A DNA stretch of 64,000 nucleotides from Psammoneis japonica (taxonomy: Eukaryota): positions 1 to 64,000 of the forward strand of contig QPGO01000156.1 in NCBI GenBank assembly GCA_008632985.1, in the 5' to 3' direction. Shown here piece by piece: positions 1 through 59,249 of this stretch. The notes below the pieces were generated by a model, which saw nothing but the letters and a program-made list of their open reading frames with translations, was not told where the DNA came from and ran no database searches. The translations under genes were made by a program, and so were the position numbers. How positions within the stretch are numbered: the first letter of the stretch is position 1; each line of letters begins with the position of its first letter.

Positions 1-2337
1 TGTCTGACTCAGCTTGACCTTGCTGTCCTGACTTTGGCCCCAAACCTTGGGTCCAAAGATGACAAACTTGTTGCAAAACTTGCTCTGCTTGCCAACACCG
101 ACATGTTTGCCACAAACGGGGTGGATGCATCATGCACAAGGTTGTGTGTGTGAATGTCTGCCATGAACCCATTGTTGGCTGGATGTTCCTCAACCTCAGA
201 TGCCATGCAACGTGCTGCCTGCAATGACCACAGCTGCAACACAGACTTGTTTCTTGTTGGTGTTGATGATCATGCTTCATGTTGTTTGACCAACAACAAG
301 TCTGATCTTGTTTCGCCGCCAATGAAGGTTCATGTCAATGTCAAGGGCATCACTGGCAATGTGATCACCTCCTGCAAAGGAACTGTCTGCTGGAATATCC
401 AAGATGACAAGGCGAGACCCATGTCTTGCATGTCCCTGGCGTCTGATGCGTTCCCAACCTGCCAATGCAGCTGCTGTCTCTGCAACACCTGGCTCAAGCT
501 CTCAAGCAACAAGAGCACACTCATGAAGGGACTCATGCTGTTGCCACAAACAACTGCATTGTGCTTGAGTGGATGGACCAGAAATGCACGCGGTCGGTCC
601 CCTCAACAAAAGCAATGTTGGTGTCTTTTGCTCTGTCCCTTCTTTTAAGTCCCTTTGGGCACTGTGCGAAACATGCGACCATTGTCAAGACGAAAAATTT
701 TGTGCTTTCCAAGCAAACATCCCTGCACCCAAAGATGACACCCCTGACCCTGCCACTGCTTTTGCACATGCTGCTTTGCCTGATGGGGTCCAAGAGCATG
801 CCAAGTGTCACTCCAAATCGACCCATGTCCATGCTGATGAAGTCCCTGACAATGCTGCTCTTCCAAGTGACACAGCTGACACTGCTGACAACTCAACACC
901 TTTGCCAAGCACCAGTGCAGTCAATTTTAACTTTGCAGCTGATGGTTCGGATGCTGTTCCAGTCATTGAAGATGAAAACCTGTCACCCCAATGAGCCCAT
1001 CACAAGAAATGCTGTTGTGGCACTGCCAACTCGTGCACCCCCCGTTTTTGTGAATTAAATCTGTGGCATGGACTGGAGACTTGCACAAGAGACTTGTGGA
1101 GTGTCGCGTGCCCCAGTGTGCTGTGTGTTGATTCAGAAAAGTGACAAAAGCCCCTTGGAAGGTCAAAGGCAACTTTAAACAAAACAAAATGTTGAAGGCT
1201 GTGGAACCCGGTCAGTGTGTGTTGGTGGATCAGCTGGGCATGACAACACCAGACCCAGCCAGTCAGTTGAAAGGATGGGCAACAACAAAACAACACCGGC
1301 ATGCTGCCACATTTGTCGATCATTGCTCTGATCTCTCTTTTGTCTAACTGCAAACAACAACAACAACTGGGGTTGAGACTGCGGTGGCAAAGCGCGCCTT
1401 TGAAGCATGCTCGCAATCACTTGGAGTGCAAATTCATCACTGTCATGCTGACAATGGCCATTTTGCTGACAATGCGCATCTCTCTGCTGTTAAAGAAGCA
1501 AGCCAATCAACATCTTTTTGTGGAGTCAATGCTCACTTTCAAAATGACAGGGCCGAGAAGACAACACGCAACCTTCAAGATTCTGTTCAAACAGAGCTGA
1601 TGCACATGCAAAGCATCGGTGGCCAAAGGCAGTGGAAGTTGCCCTCTGGCAGTCAGTCAGGAAGCCTCTCCTGTGTTGAACTTTTTGCAAAAGCACCGGC
1701 AAAACCCAAACTTCGACATTGCAGCCCAACAAGACTGTTCCCAAGTGAGGCCCTCATTCCCGAGTTGGCTCACATGTTGGACCATCACCACAGCACTCTG
1801 GTTTGGTTGCTTTGGTGTTAAATCCAGTGACGGGCATGGTCTCTCCTCAACATCATGTGAGATTTGACAATTTGTTCAAAATGCTCAATTCTCAATGCGT
1901 GGTTGAGTCCTGCTGGCAACAGATCTGTCATTTCCATGACTCAAAAGTGCAGCCATGACTGGAAGAGACGACTGAGCAGAAAGCAACAACAACGGTCATT
2001 GCTCATCCCAGAATGGAACTTGTCACTCTCTGTGATGTTGAAATGCAAGATGTGCCTCAGGATGCGATGGTGCCAGAGGAGGTTCCTTTGGAGGAGGAAG
2101 ACATGGCAATGGAGTCAAATGAGGGAGCATCTGAAACTCCAGAACAACTGTCTGAACTGCTCATTCCTGATCCAGAGCTGCCACCAGAAGTGCAGACAAC
2201 CCAACCCGGATGCAAAATTCAGCTGACACAACGAATGATTGAGTCGGAACTGCAATGACAGGCCAGTGTAATTTCACACAAGGTTGGGTTTGATGCACTG
2301 GACCAAGACATGCACTGAGAACAGGATTTTGAGTCTG

Positions 2338-4740
2338 AACTTGATGATCCCATTGCATGTTCTGTGAAAGCATCAGCCGATCCTAATGCCATGCATCTTC
2401 ATGAGGCTGTGAGGCAACCAGATGCTGGTCAGTTCAAGGAGGCCATGATTGAGGAGGCACAGGATCATGCCATGCAACAGCACTGGGAACTGTGTGAGAA
2501 AACAGATGTGCCTGATGATGAAACCATTTTACCTGCAGTGTGGTCTGTGAGCCATGTGCACTGGTGCAAAAATCACGCAGAATTTTTGCGTAGAAAAAAT
2601 CACAAAAATCAGGGTTTGGGCCAATTTTTTTTTCTCATGCTTCTGTGCCGTGCTTCTCGGCTCCACCGATGCCTCAAGGAATTGGTTTCCCTCAAAACCA
2701 TTGACACCTCACATGATGACTTTTACATGAGTGACACTGTTCTGTGCATGAACAGTTCAAAGCTCCATTTTCAGAAATTCAATCAGCACTTCACCACACG
2801 GTTCCACCACGGTGAACATTTCCCAATGATGGAGTTTTGCCAAACTGTGGATGTTGTTGTGTTTGTCATCAAAAAGCAAGCATGCAAAGTGTCAATCATT
2901 GTGACTGAAATTGATTCCTCAAGGTTGTGGCCCATTTTTTGCAAAGCACGGGAAAAGCAGGATGAACAAGACATTCCACATGAATTTTCTGCGCAAGTTT
3001 TGCACCAGAAATTGGCCCAAACCCTGTTTTTTGGGACCCACAACCCCTGCACATGGCTTGTGAAGCACAAATGCTGAATCCACACACGCGAGATCTGTGT
3101 GGAAGAGTCGGCTCAATCTTGGAGGGCACAAGCAAATCCATGGAAAGCACTGTGACCAGACTTGTGCACCAGCTTTGTCTTGGACAATGACCCGGTTGCT
3201 CCTGTGTCTCTGTGTTGTGCATGCATGGCTGGCATTGAAGACAAGTAAATTTTGTCCTGGCATGTCCTCAAGCAGACATTCCATGACCAACCTTCATGGA
3301 GCCACCCAAAAGAGCAATGTTTCCTGGGGGATCGATGGCAACAAGCATTGTCTCCACGTTGAGAAAAACATTTGCGGTGGACATGACAGTGGACAAACTT
3401 GGTGCAAACACCTGTGATCTGGATTGTTGCAAATCGGATTCACAGTTTCCAAGTGCAATGGGAGTGTGCATTTTACAAGAGAGCAACAGTCTCATTGGTG
3501 TGCACTGATGATTGCCCAATCTTTGACAAGGAGTCTGCTCACAACATTGACAAGGTCACCAAGTTAATGCAAACCACATGATTTGATGTGGAAGATGAAG
3601 GAACACAAGTGATGAATGCCATGGAGTCAAGATTCAGAAGGAGAGCAACCGCTGTCACTTGGCTCAGCCTCATCTTGTCAACAGCATCCTCATTGATCTT
3701 GGCCTTGTCAACAAAGACGGCTCTCCAAAGAAAGGTGCAACTGCCAGAGATTTCCAAGCCAAACTTGATGATCCCATCACTTGCTCCTTGAAGGCCTCTG
3801 CTGACCCGGATGCTGTGCACGTGCATGAAGCCATGAAGCAGCCAGATGCAGCACAGTTCAAGGAGGCTGTGGTCAAGGAGATGCAGGACCACACCACTTG
3901 CAAGCATTGGGAGTTGTGTGAGAAAGCTGGTGTCCCCGATGACAAGACTGTCTTGCCGGCAGTGTGGTTGATGAAGTGCAAGTGCCAAATTCACACACCC
4001 AAAGTCTGCAAGTGGAAGAGTTGACTCAATCTGGATGGGCACAAGCAGATTCCTGGAAAACACCATGACCAGACTCATGTGCAAGCTTTGTCATGGACAA
4101 CAATTTGTTTGTTTCTGCATCACTGTGTTGTGCATGGCTGGCATTCAAGACAAGTCAATTTTGTCCTTGCGCACCCACAAGCAGACATTCCACAACCTGC
4201 CTTCTCATGGAACTGCCCAAGGGAGTGACTTTCCCCCGCATTGGCATCTCCAAGCAAGGTGTGCTGGAAGTGTGGGTCAGCCGGCACCAGTGTTGCTGGG
4301 CAAAGGTGCAACAGCACTTAAAATTGGGTTTGTTTTTTTGTGTTGAGAAGAACATCTGCAGCGGACATGACAATGGACAAACTTGGTTGTGCGAAAACAC
4401 CTTAGAGCCGGATCATTGCAACTTGGATTTGTTCCATTGGAGTGCAATGAGTGCATCTTCCATGAGGGATCAACAGTCCCACTGGTCTGCACAGATGATT
4501 GTCTCATCTTTGATGAAGAGTCTGCGGCCAACATTGACAAGGTTGTCAAGTTGATGCAAACCACATTTGATGTGGAGGATGAAGGAACCATTGATGAGCA
4601 CCTGGGAGTCAAGATTCAGAGGGAGAAGGACCGATGTCACTTGGCCCAGCCCCACCACATCAACAGCATCCTTGTTGATCTTGGACTTGTCAATGAAGAT
4701 GGCACACCCAAGAAAGCAGTGACCACCAGAGAGCTTCCAG
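2338..4740 (+). repeat. Tandem duplication of the RT segment (about 2338-3760 versus 3761-4740)
   Basis: Both units begin AACTTGATGATCCCAT and run colinearly through the CTDD and AQPH..NSIL..LGLVN motifs. Confidence 0.85.
2550..3058. mobile_element. MITE (509 bp) inserted in the first RT copy
   Basis: Perfect 11-bp TIR AGCCATGTGCA...TGCACATGGCT, 4-bp TSD TGTG (2546-2549 and 3059-3062), subterminal inverted blocks (CAGGGTTTGGGCCAATTT / AAATTGGCCCAAACCCTG). Removing it restores colinearity with the second RT copy. Confidence 0.88.
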
Positions 4741-6476
4741 CTCTCACTGCAAAGCTCATTGGACCTGACTTTGATGGAGACAAATTTGACTGTGATTTTG
4801 ACTGCCGATCCGTCATGGGCAAAGCAAACTTCCTTGAGAAGTCCACTTGCCCTGGTGTCACGTGTGCAACTCATCAACTAGCTTGGTTCACGGCCAATCC
4901 AAAGCAATCCCATGGTGCAGCTCTTAAACACCTCAGTTGGCACCTGCCATTGATGCATGACAAAGGCCACTGCATTCAGACCCCACCTGATGGCACCAAG
5001 AGCTTTGAGTGCCATGTGGGTGCTGATTTCTGTGGCAATTGGGACAAAACAATCATGGCAGAGAATCCCAACACAGCAAAGTCTCGCGGCGGCTGTGTTG
5101 TCAAGCATGGAGGAGCCCCTCTCCATTGGTCATCAAAGCCACAAACTCAATTTGCTCTCAGCAGCAGTGAGAGTGAGCATTTGGCCCTGTCAGCTGTCAC
5201 CAGACACGTCAAGGTGTCTGTGCATCTGTTGGAAGAAGTCAACAAACTTCACTGCCCAGTGACAACCACGCCCACAGTTTTTTGCAAGCTTTTTGAGGAC
5301 AACTCTGCAGCACTCGAAATGGGCAAGGCACCCAAGATGAGGCCCAGGACGTGCCACATTGACAATGTCTGTCACCACTTCCATTCAGAGGTTGCCAATG
5401 GACGCTTGCTGATTGAACCATCGGTGAGTGTGTGGAGGAGAGGTTCTGACTTTAACAACAGCATCATGTCAACGGCTGCAAGAGGCAAGGGCGTCATGAC
5501 TCATGGCATGAACGTGGGAAAGTTGGCGGCATTGCCACTTTAGCGTCGCAGCGACCTCGATGGGATGTGTTTTCACACAAAACCGCGACAGTGCACACAC
5601 ACTCCCGTGGACCGTAACACATTGTAGCTGGCACACAGACAGATTTCTATGCGATTTCTATGCACCTCATACAAATCATGCAGCGAGCCCTGCCAGCACA
5701 AAATGTCTGCCCTCCAACCCAATGTGAAGTGTCGCGGCTGATGATTTTCATTCTCTCAATTTCGGGAAACTCGGTGCAAGGAGGAGTCGACACCGCATCT
5801 GCAGTGGCCCTGGGACTGAAGTCAAAAGCTTGTCAAAAGGACATCTGCAAGATGACAGAACAAACAAAGAGCTGAGCCCAGCGTCAAAGAATCACAACGA
5901 AGCTGTCAAAAGACACCAGCTCGATTCCGAGGTGACGGTGACCAGATGCAAAAAATCGACACTGCTCATCGAATGGAGTGCACTGTGTAACGAAACCCCA
6001 GCCAGTCGCACGCTACTTTGCACCTCCGACAAGAACAGCATGAGACATGTAGTTTGCCTGGGTCTGGAGGCCACCACGTACACCAGAACTCAGAACCGTG
6101 GGAGGTCTTCTCTGTCTTCTTCCGTACCACTTACAGACCTCCCAGTTGGGAGTGGTACATAAGATTCCGTTCCGGCAAAGAGTGCTCGCTATTTTTCTAC
6201 GAGGGAGGGTCCGTACATTTCTACGTGTGCTGAGAGCACCATCTTGCGCTGTGACGACTCGCGCAAATCTGCGCCATAATGATTGACGTAAGGATCCTAC
6301 AGGGACGAAATCAGCCACGAAAAAGCACGCAAAAAATCCCAAGGCCAACCAGGGCAACACTGGAGCACACAAACATTGCCATTGAAGTTTAGACCAGTCT
6401 GTTTGCATAGAGCTAAGCTTCTCCGCAGTAACTCAACACTCAAGGCATACATACTCTCCATAAAGGACCCTCTTGA

Positions 6477-9022
<2,546 letters not shown>

Positions 9023-13481: not shown

Positions 13482-13914
13482 AGTAGCAAAGCATCTTCAT
13501 TACCTACCTCCTATCTACGGTAGCCTAACCTCTGGGCTTGCTTTGGTGTGGTTCCTTTTGTAGACTACAGTAGGGCTACCTATCAACAATTTGTGATGCT
13601 GTGAATGAGTGAAGCGACTATCGCTAACTTGCTCAACGGCTCACGGTCTCTAATGTATGTAGACTCTCCCGGTATGGTATATATGTAATGTACATCTCAC
13701 TCTATTTCACACTGTAACGTACTGTATGTGCGGTAGTTAAATAAATCGCCAATCGACCGTTAGACATAATATGTTTACCTTCATCGCATTTATGCTTTCA
13801 TATCTCTCTCTTACCCATAGAGAAATATACGGTATGTCATATTATATCGCCACACTTTGCAAGTCAAACTATGATAGTACTGTACTGTACGGTACTGTAG
13901 ACTAATACGACACA

Positions 13915-16470
13915 AACATCGCCACAAATTGCCGCAGAAAAAAATGTGTCCTTCTTCTCTGTGTTGTCAAAAAAATTGGCAGCCATCACTTTTGCCCCAG
14001 GCAAGAAAATCCTGGACAAATCACAGCAGACTTTTAGCAAGTTTTGTGCATCACATGTGTTTCAATCAAGACACCCAGCATGCAAGTGTTGGCAGGTGGT
14101 GTCCTTCAATCTCCTCTGAGACAACAACACAGGAGATTTGTGCTGAAGAAAAACATGTGCACACTCAAGTGAGTTTCCGAACTTTTTTTTTAGAGACAAG
14201 GGAGAGCCATGCAGCTGTGCCAGAAGACTGCTCTTTTTGTGCTGTCTGAGCTTGGGTTTGATGCAGGGAATCTCCTGTGTGAACAAACAAGACAGCAGGA
14301 GCAACACCCGCCATTCACAATGGCTGCCATGTCAGTCAGAGGCCAGCAAAAGAATTCTGCCACAACTGCACAATGGCACAGGCAAAGGGTGGCAGGATGC
14401 ACCAAACTTGTTTTGAAAGCAAGTGTTTTTTGTAAACATGAGTCACCACACTTTTTTGATGTTCAACAGGCAGGCCCTGCGGCTTGGAAACTCATCCTGA
14501 CATGGAAGTTTCTGACAAACTGAGTCTGTTGGTCAACCAACAACAGAGCGCCAATGCCAATCAGCCTCTTTTCTCAGCATTCTCAGCATGGACTTTTTTA
14601 GCTCCACTGGCTCCAAATCAGAGCCCCCTGTGAAATGTGAAAAAAGAGCTGCAGTCACACAAATGATGACACCATCTGGAAAGAATGCACAATCTTGCTT
14701 TGGATTGAGCATTGCAGTGTTTTTGTTTTTCACTTGACAACTTGCACATCTTGCTTTCTCACACTCAAGCTGGTTGAACAAGGTTTGCTTTCCAGCACTC
14801 AATGACTCAAAGATGTGGAAACATCAGTGTTCTCAACATGATTGTCGTGCACAGTCATTGCAGACAAGAAGTGCACTCAAGCCAGATTGTGGCAATGTGT
14901 TGTTGTTGTTGTCATCATTGGCATTGTTGTTGTTCATTGATGTGTCAACATGCTTTCTGGCAAAGCTTGCGGTGGGGTCACATGGCGCCAAATGTTCCCC
15001 ATCAAAGATCTTGAAAAAATCATCCTGGCTGGTGTTTTGGAGCAACAGAAACCAACAACAATCATTGCTGTGCAAACAACATGCCCAATCAGGACATGGA
15101 GTGGATGTTTGCTCTGTCATCTTTTCAAGGGAGCCTTCAAGGACAGCATTCTTCTCAGAAAATTTCTTGCCACAAAGCAAGAAATGAGGATGGGTTCTTT
15201 CAGGCTTGGGGACACAAGTGCATCGAAAAGTCTTTTGATGTTTGCATGGTGATGTCTGCAAATGCTGGCAATCCTCTGTGCCCCAGCAAAGAGTTGAATT
15301 GGCATGAAAGAGTCACACCCAGCGCCACCCTCCTTGATGCATCACTTCTGGTGCTTTTCTGGCACATTCTTCCAAGCAAAAAATGAGGTCTTCTGGCACA
15401 TTCTTCCAAGCAAAAAATGAGGTCTTCTGGCACATTCTTCCAAGCAAAAAATGAGGTCGTGTCAAGCATCTTGTGGCTCTCTTCTGGAACATCTTTGACA
15501 GCTCTCAACAAAGTGCTGGAAAAGGACAGTGGCAGTGTGGGTGGAACAGATGCTGCTCAGCTGAACACCGCCGCCAATGCAGTGTCTCAGCAGTTTGTCA
15601 AGAAAAGCATGAAACCAGGTGTCTGTGGGTTTGAGTCCTGAGCAACCAGCTTGAGTTCATTTTCACTTGTGTTGATTTCTTGGAGCTGCTTGGGCCCTTG
15701 TCAAGAAACTGTCATGCCAATGGCACCAGGAAGAAAGAACAAGAGAAACTGGGGTTGGGGCTGAGCTTTGCGATGATGTTGTTTTTGCTTGACAACTTGC
15801 GTGCCTTGTTCACTTTCCTGCACATGAGCTGATTAAGCAGGGTCAACATTTCAGCATTTGGCAGGCCCAAGAATGGAGACAATCACCTTGACATCGCCAA
15901 TGTGATCGTGAGCAGTCATTGTGGAAAAGAAACAATGTGTTGTTGCTGTGAGCCAGACTTGGTTGTGTTTTCCCAGACTGCTGCATGCTCCCTCAAAGCA
16001 CTCAACATGAAGCCTGTCTTTTCTCAAACAATCAATCATGAAATGTGCTCCTGGTGCCTTTGGTGCCCGCACAACACGCTTCTTGGATGTCCTCCCTTGA
16101 AGCCCTCTTCACAGGCTCTGTCGCCATTGTGAGCACATCATGTTGAGAGTGCTTGGGGTTGGCCAATGATCGTGATGATGAAGAAAAAACCTCTGGTCCC
16201 ATCACCATGAGCACATGTCGAGAGCACTTGGGAGATTGTGGCCTGCGACCGCGGCATTGACAAAGGGAGTTGGTGGGTGGTGTGTTTTTGCCCCACAGGA
16301 GCATGACCACTCACATCAGACAGGCGAGGCATGAGTGTGGACACGATGCATGGTGTTTGTTGAGACAGCAATGTGTCCTTGTCAAATTTTCACAGTTGTT
16401 GAGTGGTGGGCCTCCGAGTCTCACACGCCATGGTGCGGTGTGCTTTTCTGGTCTGTGCTCTTTGTGCTTT
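13915..16470. mobile_element. TpA-depleted decayed repeat block, probable transposon relic of unassigned family
   Basis: Near absence of TA, only Cys/His-rich ORF fragments, same signature as the Copia block; no family motif recognised. Confidence 0.5.
15357..15458. repeat. Three perfect tandem copies of a 34-bp unit
   Basis: TTCTGGCACATTCTTCCAAGCAAAAAATGAGGTC at 15357, 15391 and 15425, with no spacers. Confidence 0.95.
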
Positions 16471-16731
16471 CTGTGCGAGAAGATAGAAGTGTCGATCTAC
16501 AAATCTGCGTACGATGGACGGACGGACTTGGGTTGTTTTTTGTTTTTTCATTCATTCGAATTCATTCACATCGAACTCCACCCACACAACTTCTGCCCAG
16601 GCAGGATAATATCTTGGATCTGCCTGCACTGTCCATGTCAACGCAAGTGAAAACACGAGCGTTCTCTCTTGATCCGGGCATTTCCAATCATAATTCATTC
16701 GTCTCGCACTGAAAAATAAAAGAGAGACATC

Positions 16732-27278: not shown

Positions 27279-27960
27279 AGCCAGACTATTCCAAACACCG
27301 CTTCACTCTCTAGAGCAGGATCAGCACTCAAAACACAAAAAAATAACGAGCAGGAGACGACGACCGCAGACACAGACAACATACGCAAGTCGGATCTTGG
27401 CATCCCGTCCCTGCCTGACTTGCGACGTTGTGTTTTTTGTCCGCCGAATGACGAATGAACCAGAACGCCGACCTGATTGAGTGAGTCGTGTTTGAGATCA
27501 TTGTGCGATCAAATCAGTACGGCATGTCTTGTGTACATAACATTTCCTCCCTGTGCAGCTCAGGGGATGACATTACAAACAGACAACTGTTACGTAGGGC
27601 CCTAAAGGACGAGCTCGTCGTACGGGTGGTGATGTGATGTTGCTTGCTTGGTGTGGAATAGAATGGCAAGTGGACGCCTCTTTTTTCTCATTCCGCTTTT
27701 TTTCTCATTTCAAAGGACTGGCCATGCACCATTGAAGTGATTTCCACGTGACTGGAGTGGTCTTGCACGACAACAGTTGTGCAGTTCTGTTGCGCTTTTC
27801 TGCCTGTCTACCTGTGTCTGAATCTCGAAGTGTAATTGCTCTTGGTTGTCAGTGCTTTTGTTGTTTGCGTCATTTTGTTTCACTTGTTTTCCAGTCGACT
27901 GTGTCACAGTTGGTTTCTGCATTGTGTGTTCTTTGAGACATGAAAACTGCTTCGACCTTT

Positions 27961-30290
27961 TTAGTTGACTTCCTTCTTTTCATCGATGGATCTAGGGTCG
28001 AGAATGGCCTTGGGCCCTTGGATCATTTCTTCAAAGTGCTCAGGCTGGACGGAGCACACGCGAAACTTCTCGGTGGGAATGAATCCATTGAAAGAGCTGG
28101 CTGCTGCAATGGTGCAAGCTCCCATGTTGTTCACACAGAGAAAGTTGCCGACCTTGAGCTTTGGCAGCAACATGGAGCGTGCCACCACATCGATCGAATC
28201 GCAGGCAGGACCAAAGAGAGTCGACATGAACAACTTGCGTTCTTCGCTGTTGCTTTCGATCAAGGGATCACCACCCGAGTCCAGACGCTTGAACCCGTTC
28301 TCGGTCTTGACACCAGGGGCATCTTCCGTGAGGTGAAGAACGCGTGGACGAACGGTTGCATGGTCAAACATGATGTTGTTGAAGGCACCGTGCACTCCAT
28401 CATTGACGTGACAGGCGCAATCGTCTTGCAAAGGAGCAGAATCGGCGACTGCTTGCAACATGACACCGTTGACTGCGGCTTCACCGGCAGCAGCCAATGT
28501 CAACAAGGCGGAAGTTTCTAGAGGAGCTTCCTCTTCCGAGTTTGCAGCTGCTTCGGCCACCAAAGGACAGTTCATGCCTTCCACCGTGTGAGCCGCAGCC
28601 TTCATTTGCTCCGCATCTGGAGGTCCCAGCTGATCTAGAGTGCTTTCCAATCCCTCCTTGTAGAGATCCAAATTGTCGGTGTAAACAACAACTTCTTGCT
28701 GAGCCAGTTGCTGACTCACAAAAAGCTTGTTGCAATCCTCGATCGTGTCCATCATGGAGTGCAGGAGCTGATCGTTTTCCAAGATGTTGATGGCTCCCAC
28801 AGAAGATTCGCGTCTGTGGTGGTGCACCAACGCCTTTTCTTCCTCACGGGTCATGTCACCCAAAGTGGCGGCAGCCTCCTTGTTGTTGATGGGTTCTGCC
28901 ACGAACAAAGAATCAACCTCATTGCTTCGAATGGTGACCACTGATGTGCACAAGGTCGCAGCTGCTGCCACAAAGTGCCTCCCGGGTTCGCCAATCACCT
29001 TTGCAACAGACTCAACAGGGAAGAGACGATCTGCGACTGGGGACACCTGTTCAGTGATTTCCTTGAAGAACATAAAACGGTCGTCATCGCAGTCATCTTC
29101 CCCAGACTTTCCTTCGTTGTTGCTCTTGTCATCCTTGTCAATTTTGACAGCAGGATTCCAAATGGAGTGGGTCTCTCCGGGGAAGCCAACACCAACATCC
29201 AAGATCTTCACGCGCATGCCATGCTCGCGTTCGGCCATGTCAAAGATTTCACAAGCATCCTTCAGCGCTGATTCGCATCCAGAGGCATCGCGACATCCAG
29301 AGCCAACCTGAAATGACACTCCGGCAACATTGAGGCCACATCGCTTGGCCACAGCCAAAAGAGGATGCCACTTGTGTTGTGGTGCACCAAACTTGCTGCT
29401 GAGACGACATTGACTTCCACGGTCGTCGGCGATGATTCGCAAAATCAGTTCAATCTTTTTGCTGACTGCTGCACATTTTTCCACTTCAGCAATGTTGTCA
29501 AAAGTGACCATGTGAACTCCACGGCAAACAGCCTGTGAAAAGGACAACCGTGAGAGATGCAAACCATCATGTGATGGGACAGAACTCGAGCCATTCTTGT
29601 TTGACCCACCTCGATGAGATGAGCCCGGGCTTTGCAGGGGTTGGCATAGATGACATCAGGTGTGCAACCAGGAAGACCTTGAGTGATCTGTTGTGCCAAT
29701 CAAGTTTCATTTCTCAAGGCACAGTCGAAGTTGCAGCCCAAAATCGCAAGCGTCTGAGAGGATGTGGCAAGATAAAAAGATTCACAAAGCGAAACGAAGT
29801 CAAAAGTTAAAAGCTGGACTCACCTTGATGATGACCGGATCAGGGCTGCATTTGACTGCATAGAAGGGCTCAATCCGTGGTGGAAGAAGTGGCGCCCTGT
29901 TGAAATGCAGCAAAATGGGTGAGTGAGCGACAGTGTCTTCCGAAGGCGCGCATCGCTCTCCGCTGCAGTGGACTTACATTGACAGACCTGTGAGACGACC
30001 ACACCCAAATCGACCACGTAAAATGCATCTTCCATTGGTGTTTGTTGGTCTCCGATCAGCTCCAAGTCCTTGGGACCCAGCAACAACAAGTGCGACGGCT
30101 TGTTGGTCATGGACGATCGCTCGTTCAAGTGGCAACTGGCCGCCTTGTTCAGACCCTTTCCAATGGAGCTTCCTCCTAAAAACACATCTGCTTCTTTCAA
30201 CACATCACTCAAGATGCCTGAAGCTTGTTCGCTGTCAATTTCATGAAACGACAAAGACCGTCCGGGCCTTCCCATGTCAATGAACATGTT
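27961..30290 (-). pseudogene. ODC: Ornithine/diaminopimelate-family decarboxylase (ODC-like), intron-containing and heavily TpA-mutated
   Basis: AFYVVDLG, PFYAVKC (PLP lysine), IYANPCK, TFDN, SKFGA, GVSFQVGSG, EPGRHF, CHVNDGVHGAFN, GPACDSID, NMGACT; an in-frame stop and an insertion near 29530-29700; intron donors GTAAGT and GTGAGT visible on the minus strand. Confidence 0.88.
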
Positions 30291-30471
30291 TCCTTCCACA
30301 AGGATCGACAGGAGCAGGCGATCGTCACCACGCACCCTCAACCTTGTCTTTTTTGTTTTTGGCCGTTGCCACTGGCAGGTTGGCCGTTGGCCGATTCTGA
30401 GTTCACTCTCGCCACTCGCCACTCTCAACTCGCCACCGCCGCAAATCTCCGTACATGAGGAGTCGTGGATC

Positions 30472-31251
30472 ATCTGTCACGACGAAAGTTGTGAAAACCG
30501 ATTCTCAAGAATCATCCGGGTGCCGATTCTTAAGAATCTGATTTCCGTTGAACGCAAAATTCGAGCTCGACGTGCGTGCTCAACGGAGATTCACAAGTTC
30601 CGCCGTCCTGTTTTCTTAAGAATCGAAGTTCGATTCTTGAGAACAGCTGTTACTGATTCTTATGAAAACTCTTAATATATCATTCATTCACTAATTTAAA
30701 AATATAACGTCACGTATATTTAATCATAAAAGAATGGATGTGAATATGAAGCGATTTTCGTACCGACTTCGAAGCTGTGAACGACAATGGCGGCTTCGAC
30801 GCAAGAAGCGACACCATTCAAGACATTGCGATAAATACTTCAACCTTATTCGATAGTACTTAGTTTATAACACTTGTGAGAGTCTTGCTGTGCTTTGAAA
30901 GCCGCTCTGGAGTCGAAAAAACCGTCAAAACACTCGTGCGCCGATGTTGTTGTTATGCTCTTTCGACCGAAAAAGCAATGAAGAAGTCAATTCTTCTCAG
31001 ATTTTTCGATTCATTAACATGTAAGCTATTAAGATACAATATATGGTTGATTGTTGGGACTGTTGATTGACTTCTCGTCGACAATGATCGCCATTTTGAC
31101 TTTGGATTCATGTGACAGATTTTTCACAAGAATTCCCTTTTCACAAGATTCCAATTCGTGGCACGAGCTCCGATTCTCAAGAATCGATTTTCACAAGATT
31201 CGGTCTCCGATTCTCAAGAATCGTCGATTCTCAAGAATCGTCGTAACAGAT
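30472..31251. mobile_element. MITE-like element (about 780 bp) with palindromic subterminal repeats
   Basis: TIR ATCTGTCACGACGA versus reverse complement ATCTGTTACGACGA (13/14 match); several GATTCT(CA/TA/TG)AGAATC units near both ends; AT-rich core; no clear TSD. Confidence 0.72.
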
Positions 31252-31259
31252 CCACATTG

Positions 31260-33050
31260 TGTCCATCTATCTGTCTGTGTCCACGTGGAATCTTCGTCCC
31301 GCCACGATGGATCACTTTGTCAAAGCTTGCAGCTCAACAACAGTCGCGCGCCACAAATGTTGCAAGGCCTGACTCAGTTCTCATTGGCAGAGGATTGATT
31401 TTTGAGAACTTGGCAACTTCTCCGGTGCACCAGGCAGCATGGATTCTCACGCTGGTGCAAGTTGTCTGGTGGTGGTGCAAGCCACTGATTGTGGCCCGGA
31501 CAGTTCACAATTTTAGTCAGCTGTGTTTCTGTCAAAGGCTTTTGACCAAAAACACTGCGTTGCTGCTTGGCAGTGCAGAGTGTCCAACAGCCCTCTTGTC
31601 TTAGGTGTCATCTTGGAGTGGACATCCAAGTGATGCATTGGAAGATGCGCAAAGAAGAATCTGCTGCGAACCAACATGCGTGAGGAGCTTCGGGCACACG
31701 CTGAACTGGCCTCGTGCACTGGGTGATGCCCCTGACCCCAATTTCACCCCAGATTGACAAAACATGTGAAACACCCCTGTTTTGTAAAATGCTCTGACTG
31801 CAAACAGTGGCTTGAGTTGTCATGGTGCTTTCGACAGTTGAGCAGCTTTTGCTGTTTTTGCACATCATTCAAATGTGTCGCACACTGAAAGTGAGTGTTC
31901 ACTTCCAGGTTTTTCTGGTTTTGATCTTCCATCAACCATGACCAACAAGTGCACGACAAATGCCTGCTGCATGGGATTCCATGTAAAATGCAGGGCAATG
32001 GGCCAAACTGCATGTTTCGCATGACAACATTTCATGCCCCCGGCCTGTTCCAGCTCCAGGTGATGTGCAGAGGTTCAGTTTCCACCCCCCTGGCCTGTTT
32101 CAGCTCCAGGTGATGCACAGAGGTTCAACTCCCATCAAGAGAATGATGGTTGATTTTGGCACACCAAAGAAGCCCAACTCTGTGAGTCTGCTTGTGCAAA
32201 CTTCACACACGTGTGTGACAGCTGCTGCTCTGACTCACAGGACATGCACACAACCACAGCTTTTGAGCTTGGAGCCTTTTTTCTTTTCAACACAGATGTC
32301 ACAAAGAAAGTGGTGGCATTGTTTGCTCACCCTCGTGTGTCTTTTTTGTGTTTTGCCTCCAAACAGGAGCTCTGCGGCCTGTCCTGCACATTTCTGGCAC
32401 ATGGCATGTGGCACTGACATGAAAAAAATGATGGCTCTTTGAAATTGCCGCCCACCACACAAGTCATTGCACAAAAAGATTGATGTGCTTGATCTTGTTT
32501 GTCATTGTCTTGTCTCTTGTGAATGTCGCTGCACAGCATCCAACATGTGTTCCCACCAAATGATGCAGAGTTGTGTCAGCACAGAAAGCTCCAACAAAAA
32601 GGGTTCAAGAAAGGTGCAAGAGACTCTCTGAGCAGCCCTGATGTTGGATGAGCTGTGTCACCACATCCATGGAATCAATGAAAGAAGCAAAACTTAACAG
32701 CAAGTTGAAAAGATCCAACCATGTTTGCCTTGATGAAGTTTGATTCAAGCACTCCAGTGGACAACTCATTTACACCCAGACTTGTTTTGCATTGGCACTC
32801 AAGAGGAGGCTTGAGAAGAAACACACAACAAGCCTTGTCTGACATGCTTGGTGTGCAGGCACTCAAAAACTTGTTCAAGAAGTGCAAGCCTTGCACGAGT
32901 CGTTGCTGTTGTTTTCAACAGAAAAAGTTTGGTTTGGTGTTTGACAGCATTTTGGCTATCTGCCAAATTGTGACAAGAGCATCACGACCCAGACAGACTC
33001 TGCCATTGCGTCCATTGCCAATGCGACACCCATGCTTCGGGTCCGGGGCA
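31260..33050. mobile_element. TpA-depleted decayed block of unassigned origin, with a 50-bp-period direct repeat at about 32038-32128
   Basis: Composition; duplicated GGCCTGTTYCAGCTCCAGGTGATG(TG/CA)CAGAGGTTCA. Confidence 0.45.
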
Positions 33051-33580
33051 TGATTTCTTCACTCACGTACCCCAAGAAAAATCTCGACGAAGCTTTGGCT
33101 TCGTTGACATCCAAATGCTCGACTTGGAGAAATCAAGATGGGGCTCATTTGTCCAATGCACCAGACTCAGTCATGATGGGAATGAAACTGATCGACAAAA
33201 TGAGGGTGACATTGGGCTGACGTGGTGGGCAATGGAACACAAAAGCACATCGGACTGCCGCCGATGCTCCTTTCAGCTACAATAATTAAATGAGCTAGTT
33301 TTCCCTGGCATCATAACATCAAGTTGTTCAAAGAACACTACATGACGAATTCTGCCTCCTCTGGAGAGCAAAACGTACGTGGACATAAAGGCCTGACGCC
33401 ATTGATCTACGATTCTTGTAACGTCGAAACAAGCGAGACCTTTTGGTGGGATGTACCTCTGTAAAACATGTAGCAAGAATGAAATGGGAAGTGACATGCC
33501 TCCCGACTTCTTCTCAGGTACTTTGGCCTGCCGTGATCTTGTCAATGTGAATTAATACATCCGTCAACTTAGGAGGCTCT

Positions 33581-42152: not shown

Positions 42153-42599
42153 GAAAAGACGAAAGTCTGGAGTTCGAACAAAGATGGCATGTTGCATGCT
42201 GCCGAAAAATTTTCAATTGGAAACGAACGTTTCGACCTTTCTGAATTAATTCTTGGTATGGCTTTGAAATTGAGTTGCTAGTAAAGTTGGTTAGTAACGT
42301 AAACGGATAAGAGTCAATCGACGAGTCGATCGATTTCATTGGCGCCATGTTGTTCAAATTCATCGATCAGGAATTGCCACATGTCTGAGCCTGACCTTGC
42401 CGGTAGCAAGGAGTTTCTTGCTCTCTAATAAGTATGGCGAATAGTGCCGTATGTCAAGTATCAAGGCATCGCGCTGAAATAATTAGACTAGCCCTACATC
42501 ATTGTGGTAACCTGAACTTGCCGGTAGAAGAAAGCGGCTCCGTATGTGTTGTACCGGTAGGTGTCTTTCACATTGAGTTAGAGAAAACTGCTGAGATGT

Positions 42600-45060
42600 C
42601 GACGGAGCACAGGAACTGGAAGGTCCAAGCCCAAAGGACAATCTGTGATGGTCGGCATTGGTGATGATGTGAGTGCACTTGATGTTGAGGTCATGGCACT
42701 CAGTTGCAACACAGTCGTGAGTGCACATTGGAATCAGCAGGTGACAGTGACTGACGAGGACTGTCTGTTGGATCTGGCAACGAGGAAGGCAAACTCGATG
42801 TTGTGGTGCAGAACTCGGCCACAACACCATTGTGGGAGCATTGGAGGAGTTGATGGGTGCCAGGGACAGCTGCAGGTCATTGGATGGTGCTGGGGACAAT
42901 GAAGGTAAACTCGATGTGGAGGGCACAGCACTTGGCCACAATGCGGTCATGGGTGCATTGGAGTCGACAGGTGCCAATGACAGCCAGGACTGTCAGTCAG
43001 TGCCAGCAACAAGGAAAGCAAAATGTGTGTCAATGGCACTGCACTTGGCTGCAGCAGTCATGGGTGAATTGGAATGGCTGGTGCCTGTGACACTTGAGGA
43101 CTCTCCAGCACATCAGCAATGGGGAGACAATGAAGGTGAGCACCAACGTTCTTGAGGGCACCAGAGTGCCTCCTGTCACACTCAGAGCTGCAGTGCATGG
43201 TCATGGATGCATTGGTGCTGGTTTGCCCATGGAAGCTGATGAGTGCTTTTTGTCAGCACTGGCAACAGCAATGGCATGCTTGAGATCAAGCGCGATGCAC
43301 TTCTTGACATCAAGATGCTCACAGGGGCACCAAATGTGTTGGAAGGTGCCTTTTTGATGCCTGGGGTTTTTGGTTGGTGGCGCAAGTGACAATGACAGTG
43401 CATTTGACATTGAGGGCATCACACTTGGCCTCAATGACAAGGTGGTCATTGTGGGGACTGTGGAAGTCAAAAGCAACTGCGATGGTTGAGGGCTGACAGC
43501 CCGCAATGCTGGCTGCATGTTGGTGCAGCCAACTTGGCCTGGGCGAAGCCAACTCAGCATCAATGCAGCAGCAAGTCTGTTGGACATGGGTGGAGGTGTC
43601 AACATTGACAAACTCTCAGAAGGGACATTTGCAGCTGTGATCGTTTGCACTGGGCATTGTGGAATGCACAGGTGTGGTTGGTGCTGTTGCAAGTTGCAGT
43701 GGCATCAGCTCACATTCTTGGACAAACCCAGAAACAGCACTTTTTTGTGTTTGAGGTGCTGGGGGAGATGTGCTGGCAGATGGACTTGCTTGCTTGCTTG
43801 TCAGGAGGGGCGCCACCAGCACCAGTTTGTTGTGTTGTTGTGTTGAAAGAAGCTGCTGATGCTGCAGGAGCCAGTGTCCTCATGGCAGAAAAAGGAGCCT
43901 CCAATGACATGCAGCAGGGTGCGTGAGAACTTGTGGGCACTTGCAATGTTGTTGGAGTGCCAGACATCACAGGCAGCACCAACGGGCATGCCAACAAATT
44001 AGCACAGGTGGCATGGAAAGAGCCGCTGGTGTGCAAACAATGTCTGGGGTTTCCTGGGCATGCAGCATCAGCTTCAAAAAAGGTGGTGCTTCCCACCAGG
44101 CCATTTTTTTGTAACAACAACAATGCAGAGGAGCAGAGAGAACATCAAGTCAGAGTGGAGTCATCAAAGCAAGAAAACAACAACCATGAGAAAAGCTTCC
44201 ACCCCAGCGGCCGCCTTGAAAGATGACACTTCACCCGTTGTCTCTGCTCATCACAACAGACACAATCTCCTGACGCTGCTAAAAAAAGAGGCTCTTTGAA
44301 TGCAGCTGTTTCTTTTCATGGGGGTGACTCTTGAGTGCTGGTGAAGTGCTCCCCATTGGCAAAAATGCAAGTGCCACTGGTGTTTGCACATTTGAGAGAG
44401 AGATCATCATCTCTTGTTGTTGCCAAGGTGGTGAAAAACATTGTCTGCAAAAATGTTGCCAACCAAATTTTCATCAAAGGGCACCAAGTCATCATCAATT
44501 TAAGGTGGCCAAATGTCAGAAATGCCAAAGTGGCATCAGGACAGAGCAAAAATGATGAGCTCTTGAATGCCTCAGTTGAGTTGGTGCGAGCACCAGCCTT
44601 GATGTTGTCTCTGGGAGGGTGCAAAGGTTGGTTCATCCAGGGAAGGTGGTGGCATCATCTGGCTGCAACTGTTTCACAAAGGCAGGTTCCATCTTTGTCT
44701 CATTTGAGTTGGTGCGAGCAGCTTTCATGTTTTCTCTTTGCGCGCAAAGGTTGGGGGTCATCCAGCCAGGAGGAGGGGTGGCCTTGTCACTCTCACAAGG
44801 CAACTGGGCTGAGGAAGCTGACAATGTGAGTGGCAGCAGCCAAAATTCACAATGACAGCAATGGCAGAAACTCTCGCTGCTGGGGTTTTGCTCTCAAGGT
44901 CCTTGTGCGGCTGACTCTGCTGGGGGGGTCTCTGTCTTGACTCGTCTGTCACAGAGAACACTGAGCAACACCTGCCTCTTCCTTTCCCACACACAAGGAC
45001 TGACAATGGCAGCTTCAGTCCCACTCTCTCTCAAGACATCATGTCTAAAGGTGTGCCATC
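42600..45060 (-). pseudogene. TpA-depleted relic of a Pro/Ser/Thr-repeat, probably single-pass, host-type protein gene
   Basis: Minus-strand fragments such as APVDSNAPMTALWPSAVPSTSSLPSLSPAPS recur; hydrophobic stretch near 44110-44190; no intact frame. Confidence 0.45.
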
Positions 45061-45455
45061 TGTTCAGATGACAGCACCAGTCTACAGCGAGCTGATCGGT
45101 GTCGGTTCAGAAATGCCATTCATTCATTGGATGGGTTGCGGTCCCCGCGCGCTGATGGTCCCAAACTGACAACCGTGCGTTATCAACATTCAAACTTATT
45201 CAAGCAAGTATGCATGCCACTCTCTACTAGCAGTAGTTGTTCCCTCATTCTAGAGTAGAACGCAACACCCAACACGCACACCCAACCAACACTACAGTAC
45301 ATACATTTTTCCAAAGGGTGGGACTGTAATGTAACAACCCCCTCGTCTAATCTCACCGGTCTTGTTCGGCCTAAAGTACAGTGGTTGGCTTCTGCTGATT
45401 GGTTGAAGGTAATTTGCTGTATAACAATTGTCCAGTCTCCCCTACCGAGAACAAA

Positions 45456-52332: not shown

Positions 52333-54632
52333 ATGATGCGCAGGGTGTTTCGAAGACGATACCATGTACGAGCGGCGGCTCAGACGGTCGTACTGCTTTG
52401 CCTAGTTCTCGGTGGGCTAGTCATGTACCAGGTTGACTTGGACGATATGCAGAGCCAACGAGTATTGAAGCAAGACTGTGATAAAGACAAGGCCGATCCC
52501 GCTTGGCGGCTGGTCTTTTACGTGATTGGAGTCGTGTACATGTTTATTGCGATTGCTATCGCGTGTGATGAATTCTTTGTTCCAGCCTTGGAAGAAATGA
52601 GCTCTGAGAGACACTTGAATTTAAGCACCGACGTTGCGGGAGCGACACTCATGGCGGCAGGAGGGTCAGGTATGCATGTTCTTTGTTGAAGGTTGAAGCT
52701 GCGAGCCCTCATGGGGTCTCCTTGATCCTTTTGTTTCGCGTCTACATCTGTTCTACATCTAACATTTGTGAAAATGTCATGTTGTTTATTTTGCTCGAAT
52801 TGTTTGTTCAAGCACCCGAATTCTTTAGCAATTTCTTCGGAACCTTTAGCGACAGTGCGATTGGGTTTGGAACCATTGTGGGAAGCGCCGTGTTTAATGT
52901 GTTGTTTGTGATTGCCATGTGTGCACTTTTATCCAAAGAAGTTCTGACGTTAACGTGGTGGCCGCTGTTTCGGGATAGTTCCTACTACGCCGTGGGGTTG
53001 AGTGTTTTAGCCGTGTTTGTTGGGGGTACAAGCAAGGAAAAGATTGAATTGTGGGAAGCTATTGTTCTTTTTGTCATGTACATTGGTTATATTATTCTCA
53101 TGTACTTCAACAGTAAAATTTACAAACGGCTTACGGGAAAAGAACTTGTCTATCCTGAAGAGTTTGATAATAATGAGCAACGACAAGAGCAAGAAGAAGC
53201 ACCAGCAGAAGGCGGCAACACTGTTCCAGAACGTGGGTTGGGACCACATCGTTTGACAAACATTAGTCAGCTTTCTCTCATGAGTGGTGGGAGTCAAATG
53301 TCTGTTGTGAGCGGAAGTTCCCTCATTCTAGACCAAGCTGCGGACACACGGCGACGACGACGACCGAGAACCTTTCGGGCGGGTATTCTCAAGCTCTTGC
53401 GCGACCCAAACTCATGGGTGGAAACAGCTGGCGTTGGTATCGTGGCAAAGATTGCCGGCGATGCCGATTACATTTTTCGTTGTGTAGATGTCAATAATGA
53501 TGGTATTGTGGATCGAGAAGAATTAGAACAACTCTTTGAGAAACTGCAAATCGATTTGACACAACAGGAGCTGGACGATGTCTTTGCGGTGCTTGACGAG
53601 AACAAGGACGGACAGGTACGTCAACTGCAGTCGTTTTTGTGAGGCTAATACGCAGATTCTTGGTGGCGGACTAACATGATTATGTCTGCTGCTTTCGTTG
53701 CTATCGATATATAGATTAGCGCGCTTGAATTCAGTAATTGGTATGTCCGTTCCGAGGAACGGATTCTATCGCGTGTCAAGCACGTGTTTGATGAATTCGA
53801 CACCGACCAGTCGGGCACCATTGATCGAGATGAATTGAAGCTGCTGTTGGAAACGCTAGAACCTCGAGTCACGGACGAGGATGTTGACGATGCTATTCAT
53901 GCCATGTACCAGAGTGGTTCTCACGACGAAATTACATTTGGAGAGTTTTCCGATTGGTACCGAGAGTCGTTGGTCTATCAACGGCAAAAAGAAGAGGTGG
54001 AACATGAAATGGAGGGTGTATGGCAAAATCTGAAACCACCAAAAGAGGGCAACTGTTTGGCTTGGTCCAAGTATCTCTTGGTTATTCCGCTCGTGGCAGT
54101 CATGACGGTTACCATTCCCGATACTCAACGACCCGGCATGAGTAAGTGGTGTTACTTGGCATTCATCATGTCGATATGTTGGATTGGATTCTTTTCGTAC
54201 CTCATGGTGTCATGGACTGAGACGATTGGGCACACCATTGGTGTCCCGTCAGTAGTTATGGGATACACACTCTTGGCGGCCGGGACGTCTGTACCCGACT
54301 TGCTCTCTAGCGTCATTGTCGCACGACAGGGCTTTGGTGACATGGCCGTGTCGAGTTCGATTGGATCCAACATTTTTGATATTCTTGTCGGACTGCCTCT
54401 TCCGTGGATCATTTACATGTTGTGGCCATCCAAGCCGAGCTATATTGAAATTGGATCCAAGAACATTTTGATTTCCGTTCTGATTCTCTTGGGCATGCTG
54501 GTCTTTGTGATTGTCACAATACATTGTCAAGGTTGGAAGTTAACCAAGATGCTGGCATTTCTTATGATGCTGTTTTATATTGGCTTTTTGGTACAAGCGA
54601 TTCTTTTGGAGCTGCCGTTTGACAGTTGCTAA
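52333..54632 (+). CDS. K+-dependent Na+/Ca2+ exchanger (NCKX/SLC24-like) with EF-hands in the central loop; introns 52670-52812 and 53616-53714
   Basis: [49 protein letters not shown]-hand loops [36 protein letters not shown]. Confidence 0.93.
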
Positions 54633-54729
54633 AAGCTAAGTCTTTTTAAAAAGGAATTGAAAAAAAAGCAAAGCCTGCTCGCTAGCAAAAGTGAACCCAT
54701 GACCGAGAGGCACAGCCACTGGAGTAAAG

Positions 54730-55680: not shown

Positions 55681-55994
55681 CGTGAAAAGAGAAGGTTTGT
55701 TATTCTTTTCTCTATGGTGGGCTTTGTTTGTCTTTGCTTTGGACAAGGGTGGTGATGAGAGGCGTTCACTCCAGATTCCGAGATTTTGTGCGCGCTCTGC
55801 GCTATCGCAAAAATCCGGCAGGGCGGTCACGAGTCACGAGTCACGATCAAGATCTCAGTGCTCAGCGACGACGACTCCTCCTCAGCGCATCAACAACACC
55901 GCGACAACAACGAAAGCCATTGTTGATGTTCCTGAAATAGAACCAGCGTCGTTGTGTTGGTCTGTGTATTGATACATCATTTACTACTGTCACT

Positions 55995-58752: not shown

Positions 58753-59249
58753 TGTGATCGGGAGGAAAAACAGAATTCCTGGTTTCACTAAAGTTGCCAA
58801 GTTTCGCCAAACAATAATTGTTGGGTGTTGTGACCGACCTGAGACCGTGTCTCAGTCATCCGTGTGGCAGTTCGCGCATGGATGGTTCGGGTTCGTTTTG
58901 TTCCTTGAAAAAGTGATGACTCTCTTCATTCAACGGCATGAATATGTTGATTGTGACAGATCACCAACCGGCACCACGTGAAAGGTGGGACAATAGCAGT
59001 AGGCCCGGTACATTGTCTGTTGTTCCATCCGCTACAGAAAAATCATACGAGACATTGTGTAGAGTGTCATCTCATAACCTTTTCAACTTTTCAGCACCTC
59101 ACATTTTTTTTCTTTCCGAGCAACAAAAAAAAATCACATCGCTTCTTCCTTTGGATGAAACGATCATACAGTAGGACATGTGTTTGTACGACACTCGAAT
59201 GTTTTGGGTCCCACACGCGCTCAAGTAAATTTTTGAATGACTCATCTCA

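Follow-up and report, generated by a model that had tools for sequence, protein, structure and literature searches.

Results

A ruined Copia element with two reverse transcriptase copies

We analysed 64,000 nucleotides of the diatom Psammoneis japonica (GenBank assembly GCA_008632985.1, contig QPGO01000156.1, positions 1 to 64,000 of the forward strand), called the window below. It opens inside a Copia retrotransposon whose reverse transcriptase (RT) region lies there twice, in tandem. A sequence-only reading of this DNA had singled out two codons of an RT motif at which one copy has TGT and the other CAT, and took them for the two products of an ancestral TAT (Tyr) mutated on opposite strands of double-stranded DNA. 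The results given here favour a process of that kind, acting at TpA on both strands of resident DNA in discrete domains, together with a separable decay of CpG. The analysis covers this one 64-kb window; the relatives used are distant at the nucleotide level, and the run contigs consulted stand in an uncertain relation to the assembly.

The open frame at 4371-5543 matches 41 longer proteins, most of them full-length Copia polyproteins of 1100-1450 residues that carry PF13976 and PF07727. The best match (P0002) has 56% identity, and the named matches come from Nitzschia inconspicua. By tblastn, residues 71-1330 of P0002 follow one another along 196-5453, and the RT part finds two matches. The RVT_2 matches score 25.6 and 23.7 bits against a curated cut-off of 31.6, as expected of a ruined copy. 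By these alignments the carrier is a Ty1/Copia polyprotein in the order gag, protease, integrase, RT and RNase H, with an RT of the RVT_2 family. Its features are as follows.

196..2330, plus strand: degenerate gag, protease and integrase (tblastn, P0002 residues 71-866 in order)
2338..3760, plus strand: RT copy 1, interrupted by an insert (self-comparison; Pfam RVT_2, E 4.2e-05, below the curated cut-off; tblastn with P0002)
2545..3060, no strand: 516-base insert with terminal inverted repeats (TIR), resembling a miniature inverted-repeat transposable element; in copy 1 only, not in copy 2
3148..3165, plus strand: copy 1 motif H C D Q T C; both Cys codons from Tyr (TAT to TGT), judged by the relatives
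3761..5540, plus strand: RT copy 2, then RNase H (tblastn with P0002; open frame 4371-5543, 390 codons, no Tyr)
4061..4078, plus strand: copy 2 motif H H D Q T H; both His codons from Tyr (TAT to CAT), judged by the relatives

This Copia copy is dead: it has frameshifts, TGA stops, the internal tandem duplication of RT and an inserted element. No long terminal repeat (LTR) was identified; the window begins inside the element, and no direct repeat of the element occurs elsewhere in it. Nor does the window hold a second copy of this Copia family, either at the DNA level or among the tblastn segments, none of which (0 of 265) lies beyond position 5700.

Reciprocal TG and CA steps between the two copies

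Self-comparison of the window resolved the duplication, which spans about 1 kb, into three colinear homologous blocks: 2338-2544 with 3762-3968 (72.7% identity), 3061-3309 with 3972-4220 (76.1%) and 3358-3750 with 4342-4732 (76.2%). The motif reads CAC TGT GAC CAG ACT TGT at 3148-3165 in copy 1 (HCDQTC in frame) and CAC CAT GAC CAG ACT CAT at 4061-4078 in copy 2 (HHDQTH), just as the sequence-only reading had given it. We aligned the copies with MAFFT after removal of the insert and obtained 667 matches and 229 mismatches, the latter made up of 162 transitions and 67 transversions. At 36 places in this alignment an adjacent TG in one copy faces CA in the other; TG belongs to copy 1 at 19 of them and to copy 2 at the other 17. 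In 2000 shuffles of the alignment columns such sites numbered 3.7 ± 1.8 and never more than 11, so the observed 36 are far beyond chance, and any other pair of dinucleotides differing by two transitions occurred at most five times between the copies. The two flagged codons are thus part of a strong, non-random pattern. Most of the 74 remaining transitions that separate the copies set AA against AG or GA against GG. We read these A-to-G differences outside TpA as ordinary divergence, because conserved Lys, Asn, Glu and Gly codons have been kept.

Along the duplication the first ten reciprocal sites (2354-2525) alternate strictly TG, CA, TG, CA. A runs test over all 36 sites counted 23 runs against 18.9 ± 2.95 expected (z = 1.38, not significant), and it revealed no tracts of same-strand TG or CA outcomes.

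The ancestral state at the flagged codons

In an alignment of 20 full-length relatives (A1), the first flagged site is Tyr in 14 and a gap in three, with Ser, Val and Phe once each; the second is Tyr in 19 and Phe in one. Among 35 relatives placed directly on the DNA, Tyr was found in 26 of 31 at 3151 and 28 of 34 at 4064 (the first site in the two copies), and in 31 of 33 at 3163 and 33 of 35 at 4076 (the second). Arg occurs at neither site in the 20 aligned relatives or in the 35 placed on DNA. The closest relative, P0002, reads GKHYDQTYAPALSW and matches copy 1 apart from the two Tyr. Since the relatives have Tyr and never Arg, and the third codon position is T in each copy, the ancestral codon was TAT. 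The suggestion that TGT and CAT are two resolutions of one ancestral TAT is therefore borne out at both codons; intact relatives with Arg or generally non-Tyr residues at these sites, which would have spoken against it, were looked for and did not turn up.

We then assigned each of the 36 reciprocal sites an origin according to which ancestral dinucleotide yields the residue of the relatives. By this measure 11 sites (and four more weakly) come from TA and five (and three more weakly) from CG, and 13 are ambiguous. Clear cases of CpG origin are 3066/3977, where 35 of 35 relatives have Arg, and 3075/3986 (31 of 35). A CpG source accounts for about one third of the assignable sites, so that two decay processes supply the same TG/CA sink. 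The rule that reciprocal TG/CA means ancestral TA stood for the flagged codons and for most sites; it failed for the CpG-derived ones, and a TA origin is not universal.

Where a conserved Tyr can be scored in both copies, three pairs are discordant (3151/4064, 3163/4076 and 3617/4599) and three have TG in both; the pair at 3472-3476/4461 could not be scored, as indels shift copy 1 there. Three against three is the expectation for independent and unbiased resolution, and some of the hits may predate the duplication. The discordant sites show that both lineages mutated independently; alone they are no proof that the duplication arose in genomic DNA.

Codons lost and codons kept

To extend the count to the whole element, we called a codon conserved if at least 15 of the 35 relatives covered it with a consensus of at least 80%. 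The 18 conserved Tyr codons are now TGY in nine cases (Y, C or T), CAY in seven, TGA in one and TTT in one; none is TAY. The 34 conserved Arg codons are now CGN (8), AGR (4), CAR (7), CAY (3), TGY (4), TGG (2), TGA (1) or other (5), so that 17 of 34 read TGN or CAN. Control residues were largely kept: His 19/19, Trp 19/21, Phe 21/24, Lys 14/15 and Asn 7/8. Four of seven conserved Met codons have become GTG; the two that lie within the duplication (2409 and 3869) pair T|GTG with C|ATG between the copies, as would be expected if both descend from T|ATG. The frame at 4371-5543 contains 0% Tyr, 4.4% Cys and 6.2% His. No other Tyr-free relative was found in the protein collection, where Tyr makes up 2.3-4.0% of the 41 longer matches and 1.2-4.8% of 52 matches of near-equal length. 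Positions 1-5700 hold 27 TA, 101 CG, 645 TG and 641 CA. In this element TpA has been converted to TpG and CpA almost completely, and CpG by about two thirds.

These numbers bear on the simplest alternative, that CpG decay alone made every reciprocal site out of methylated CpG (for example, CGT to TGT or CAT). Five of the reciprocal sites (and three weak ones), such as 3066/3977, do come from CpG, and CG is depleted to 0.26-0.45 of expectation in five of the seven low-TA islands described below. CpG decay alone is nevertheless refuted: it conflicts with the lack of Arg in the relatives at the flagged sites, with the survival of 0 of 18 Tyr codons, with an observed/expected ratio (o/e) for TA of 0.07 and with an ODC-like island that lost its Tyr codons yet kept CGN codons.

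With TAA and TAG nearly gone from the islands, long spurious open reading frames (ORFs) run through all six frames; the first 9 kb contain 57 stop-to-stop frames of at least 80 amino acids.

Both strands are affected, and so is an inserted DNA element

Both outcomes, TG and CA, are present within each RT copy, and in the five core islands that we counted the two dinucleotides are equally frequent (TG/CA 645/641, 245/243, 138/140, 239/224 and 461/453). The insert in copy 1 shares the signature. Terminal inverted repeats are the hallmark of a DNA element, and here they lie at 2550-2627 and 2974-3058. With o/e ratios of 0.05 for TA, 0.37 for CG, 1.78 for TG and 1.76 for CA, the insert is as free of TA as the retroelement around it. 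The repeat blocks of its two arms are not colinear, and inverted-repeat pairs were compared instead of a global alignment; one such pair (I1), read by eye, has nine mismatches in 35 bases, including two reciprocal TG/CA, one CG/TG and one TA/TG.

An edited copy could also have arrived from elsewhere, if the retroelement RNA (through ADAR-like conversion of A to I) or its cDNA had been deaminated and then integrated. The best-characterised island is a retroelement, and TpA agrees with the preference of ADAR for U ahead of the edited base, as described in bioRxiv 10.64898/2026.01.13.699255. Like editing by ADAR or APOBEC3, the changes seen here are transitions of deaminase type with a neighbour preference (for ADAR, U before A), and they leave hypermutated copies. 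However, ADAR and APOBEC3 act on one strand, on RNA or cDNA before integration, and leave coordinated tracts. Editing of the sense RNA yields TA to TG only, whereas the conserved Tyr codons became TGY nine times and CAY seven times, with both products in each copy; the outcomes are interleaved without same-strand tracts, and 36 reciprocal sites separate the two halves. The TIR insert and the ODC-like copy are not retroelements and have the same signature, and near-identical sequences of the same locus differ at TG, CA, CG and TA dinucleotides. Moreover, ADAR is known from animals alone, as that preprint also states, and the host here is a diatom. None of the marks of ADAR-type editing (one strand, clusters, RNA-stage sequences only) is present, and we regard editing before integration as very unlikely. 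The presence of both outcomes in each copy, the equal TG and CA counts of the islands, the lack of clustering and the inclusion of the TIR insert and the ODC-like copy support the view that double-stranded DNA was mutated in place and that retroelement RNA was not what was edited, as the sequence-only reading had argued from the two codons.

Low-TA islands across the window

Islands were defined with a sliding window of 500 bases as DNA with TA o/e below 0.2. Seven were found, which take up 22,600 of the 64,000 bases and have TA o/e of 0.07-0.14 (all values below are o/e).

1..5650: island 1; TA 0.07, CG 0.30, TG 1.93, CA 1.69; Copia element
13901..16700: island 2; TA 0.07, CG 0.29; no Pfam match
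27651..30650: island 3; TA 0.11, CG 0.78; holds the ODC-like open frame 27964-29655, minus strand
31051..33300: island 4; TA 0.09, CG 0.45
42551..45200: island 5; TA 0.08, CG 0.26
54601..55950: island 6; TA 0.14, CG 0.44
59101..64000: island 7; TA 0.09, CG 0.36; continues past the end of the window

Outside the islands the window has TA 0.58, CG 0.99, TG 1.18 and CA 1.13. The GC content of island 1 resembles that of its flanks. As to contents, one island holds the Copia element with its TIR insert, one the host-type ODC-like copy, and five nothing recognisable: a Pfam search of the other islands returned no match among ORFs of at least 110 amino acids, and a search of stop-free segments with TGA read through gave only a match to a neighbouring host rRNA methylase and one weak DUF match.

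The few TpA steps that survive in the islands are a biased sample. T precedes or A follows in 86 of 125, compared with 610 of 1628 outside (odds ratio 3.7, p = 1e-11). By preceding base, the numbers inside and outside are 14 and 426 for A, 26 and 526 for G, 30 and 341 for C, and 55 and 335 for T. ATA and TAT steps were removed most thoroughly, and TTA and TAA least; this flank bias is possibly a sequence preference of the process.

The islands might instead be old, unconstrained DNA at the equilibrium of a genome-wide bias from TpA to TpG and CpA, with no targeting and with the genes held back by selection. DNA outside the islands, at TA 0.58, TG 1.18 and CA 1.13, leans in that direction, and host coding sequence falls to TA 0.32-0.54. 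On the other hand, 1-kb stretches outside the islands (starting at 11001, 13001, 41001 and 47001) have TA o/e of 0.81-0.98, which selection could hardly maintain if the neutral equilibrium were 0.07. The island edges are sharp, and the ODC-like copy lost 10 of 12 conserved Tyr and kept nearly all of its other conserved residues, which speaks for a fast and specific burst and not for slow neutral decay. In Bigelowiella natans, the same spectrum is reported about 1000 times faster in particular regions. We therefore consider an untargeted bias unlikely as the explanation of the islands.

Two further repeats were seen in the window. Positions 57388-57626 contain a 122-base tandem duplication (90% identical) in a region with a BRCT/DnaJ-like frame, and 15357-15458, in island 2, an exact direct repeat of 34 bases.

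The ODC-like frame and the separation of TpA loss from CpG decay

The frame in island 3 allowed the two kinds of loss to be compared in sequence of host type.

27964-29655, minus strand: ODC-like open frame, 564 codons, both ODC domains (Pfam), in the island at 27651-30650

Its protein has 75% identity to that of N. inconspicua, the next matches are from other raphid pennate diatoms, and a protein atlas look-up gave the family assignment only. These matches place the host among the pennate diatoms, close to Bacillariaceae and Nitzschia. Tyr makes up 0.4% of its residues, compared with 2.8-3.6% in nine homologues. At columns conserved in at least 80% of 60 homologues, two of 12 Tyr codons are kept (TAC) and the others have become TGY (6), CAC (3) and CGC (1), with 12 of 15 Arg, 16 of 16 Phe, 8 of 8 Asn, 8 of 8 Gln and 22 of 23 Leu retained. 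By these alignments the frame is a copy of a host-type gene in which the damage is confined almost entirely to TpA, while CpG has hardly suffered. Probably the TpA process alone struck it, as a silenced duplicate or a pseudogene.

The converse was seen in environmental Copia sequences. We examined the 80 best-matching of 408 confirmed stretches, which represent 79 distinct loci; the peptide patterns used in the scan contain Tyr and Arg and are biased against mutated copies. None of these 79 loci has TA o/e below 0.35. Several are poor in CG and ordinary in TA, with TA/CG of 0.73/0.22 in L066, 0.60/0.25 in L010 and 0.63/0.26 in L058; the last keeps 11 of 19 Tyr columns and 9 of 37 Arg columns. 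L011 groups with L010 as depleted in CpG (0.22-0.26) and ordinary in TpA (0.60-0.73). At L055 (TA 0.35) the 13 Tyr columns read Tyr five times, Cys four times and His once; this might be a partly TpA-mutated copy, though the hint is slight at best. Loss of TpA and decay of CpG are separable, since the ODC-like island shows TpA loss alone and some environmental Copia loci CpG loss alone.

Public-run contigs and neighbouring sequence

Contigs from a public run of the same organism cover the locus with a depth typical of single-copy sequence and match the window at >99% identity. The differences given here are the best-supported ones, with 151 more rows beyond them. Among 16 such places in island 1, eight exchange CG with TG or CA, one exchanges TA with TG (at 1492), six are reciprocal and one is G to C; 15 of the 16 fall at CG, TA, TG or CA steps, which is indirect evidence for mutation of resident DNA. 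The three reciprocal TG/CA pairs that make up the six places are 1545/6, 2805/6 and 3066/7. In the gene stretch beside island 1, the seven differences comprise both transversions and transitions at CpG.

Modified bases (5-methylcytosine, possibly a modified A or T) in heavily modified repeat DNA could in principle have misled base calling or polishing systematically, so that TG and CA were written into the assembly in place of CG and TA. At least one small indel separates the assembly from the run contigs, and some of the differences from the runs lie exactly at these dinucleotides. However, the run contigs reproduce island 1 almost exactly (six differences in 1260 bases, three in 462 and two in 410), the run being of uncertain independence from the assembly. 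One run (X1) contains 84% of sampled 31-letter words of 1-9000, and where a run differs it usually has the other product, TG or CA, and not TA. We judge such an artefact to be still less probable than editing before integration.

The indel lies in a CDC5-like gene (6534-9022), which is split into overlapping frames at 6477-7484 and 7037-9022. In contigs of both public runs one more A follows 7153, and 7156-7157 carry two substitutions. An intron is therefore not the cause of the frameshift, which reflects either an error in the assembly or a difference between strains. Within its first 200 residues, this gene keeps the Tyr of VMKYGK and EHYE, and it has His at a place that is Tyr in the human chain and Phe in another. 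Leakage of the process into host genes was considered on this control, which is too little to claim it.

About 110 bases of RT copy 2, at ~4221-4341, have no counterpart in copy 1. Run contigs reach a depth of 2830 in the bin 3970-4536, compared with ~60 for single-copy sequence, and have loose ends at 4264, 4290 and 4339; this is probably a second small high-copy insertion. Just past the polyprotein stop, the 317 bases at 5671-5987 contain no TA at an ordinary density of CpG, and they overlap a high-copy repeat around 5916-6068 (depth 1328 in the bin 5671-6237). They may be an LTR remnant or another target of TpA loss only.

Discussion

We conclude, with a probability that we put at roughly 0.78, that resident DNA in discrete domains of this genome has undergone strand-symmetric hypermutation specific to TpA, accompanied by a separable decay of CpG. 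According to this model, a strike at the A of TpA on the upper strand would produce TG, and a strike at the A on the lower strand would produce CA as read on the upper strand. An ancestral TAT would end as TGT or CAT at random, and homologous copies mutating independently would be discordant at about half of their sites. The conversion of TpA to TpG and CpA (A:T to G:C, at TpA only) would be nearly complete in discrete silenced or foreign domains. The second process, from CpG to TpG and CpA, would be the decay expected of methylated CpG in diatom transposons, and would act in most of the same domains.

The agent is most likely an adenine deaminase acting on DNA, by analogy with what has been proposed for B. 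natans; oxidation or misrepair of the paired T would be an equivalent alternative to deamination of the A. Targeting may follow chromatin state or foreignness, and the process may serve genome defence.

Several points weigh against this conclusion. Five of the seven islands lack a recognisable protein domain, and foreign or repeated content was demonstrated for one of the seven only. The rest of the window is itself poor in TA (0.58), and part of one real host gene reaches 0.32; a genome-wide bias against TpA must therefore exist at some level. The ancestral states rest on conservation of amino acids in relatives whose identity to the mutated frame does not exceed 56%. At the nucleotide level the relatives are 56-63% identical, except for two short segments at 67% and 73%; these outgroups are too distant for ancestors of synonymous sites to be read, and 13 of the 36 reciprocal sites are ambiguous. 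In island 2 the best-supported differences from the runs are mostly transversions, and the differences between window and runs could be consensus errors rather than alleles. An enzyme, its targeting and its function are inferences from the signature. Finally, CpG decay is seen in most islands and is not mentioned for B. natans in the accessible text, which makes the match with that system a partial one.

In the literature searched, where no report of TpA hypermutation in diatoms turned up, the same spectrum has been described once before, in a 2026 preprint on B. natans (Mettrop et al., bioRxiv 10.64898/2026.01.13.699255), and is here extended to a diatom. In that preprint, 231 of 302 nuclear mutations in mutation-accumulation lines fell in two integrated viral regions; 230 of these 231 were A to G or T to C, all at TpA, at ~1000 times background and in some lines only. 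Low-TpA coding sequences of B. natans were enriched for RT and DDE domains, and the authors propose an ADAT2-like adenine deaminase that acts on DNA. The two cases share A:T to G:C changes confined to TpA, both products (TpG and CpA), discrete regions and a resident-DNA substrate. They also share long-term loss of TpA with gain of CpA and TpG, and sequences bearing RT or DDE domains among the TpA-poor ones. They differ in several respects. B. natans is a rhizarian (a chlorarachniophyte), whereas P. japonica is a stramenopile. The targets are giant-virus and virophage inserts there and an LTR retrotransposon, a TIR insert and an ODC-like copy here, and TA o/e is 0.07-0.14, near saturation, compared with 0.45 in the region of B. 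natans derived from nucleocytoplasmic large DNA viruses. Real-time mutation data exist for B. natans, whereas the diatom provides a sequence signature.

Repeat-induced point mutation (RIP) converts C to T mostly at CpA and enriches TpA. Like RIP in ascomycetes, the process described here makes dinucleotide-specific transitions at the DNA level, inactivates repeats or foreign DNA, and leaves skewed islands and ruined frames. It runs in the opposite direction: TpA is destroyed (0.07) and CpA and TpG are gained (1.7-1.9), and the islands do not have the composition that defines RIP. RIP also depends on duplication, which here is at most a possible trigger. The diatom DNMT4 is related to the RIP factor RID and is of unknown function, and in the Phaeodactylum genome the transposons are the methylated part, according to the relevant passages of PMC9998398.

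The CpG component resembles the decay of methylated CpG, with CG at 0.26-0.45 in five islands, gain of TG and CA, and conversion of Arg CGN codons to TGN or CAN (17 of 34). Such decay can neither destroy TpA nor replace Tyr by Cys or His; it is nearly absent from the ODC-like island and occurs alone in some environmental Copia loci. The carrier resembles the Ty1/Copia (CoDi-type) elements of diatoms in aligning in order with full-length Copia polyproteins, as far as these are treated in the accessible text of PMC2806351, the founding paper on such elements; a term search of that text returned no passage on transitions, on such substitutions or on deamination.

A broader version of our conclusion is that diatoms possess an enzymatic genome defence that works as RIP in reverse: it would edit the A (or the paired T) at TpA in both strands of DNA that is silenced, duplicated or foreign until TpA, Tyr, TAA and TAG are gone, and would be homologous to the process in B. 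natans. We offer this as a tentative proposal, somewhat less likely than the opposite.

For gene callers and repeat annotation the islands are a trap, as they are full of spurious long ORFs and their transposons tend to escape profile searches. The same traits provide markers with which the process could be mapped and a correlated gene sought: Tyr-free frames rich in Cys and His, six-frame ORFs created by the loss of TAA and TAG, and TA o/e <0.15. Besides retrotransposons, the process affects a TIR element and a copy of a host-type gene. It can be told apart from the decay of methylated CpG, and its presence in a diatom extends TpA hypermutation to marine algae that rank among the most abundant and best studied. 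If it is indeed shared with B. natans, DNA-level editing of TpA would be an old defence across the SAR supergroup (stramenopiles, alveolates and Rhizaria) that can be studied in tractable diatoms.

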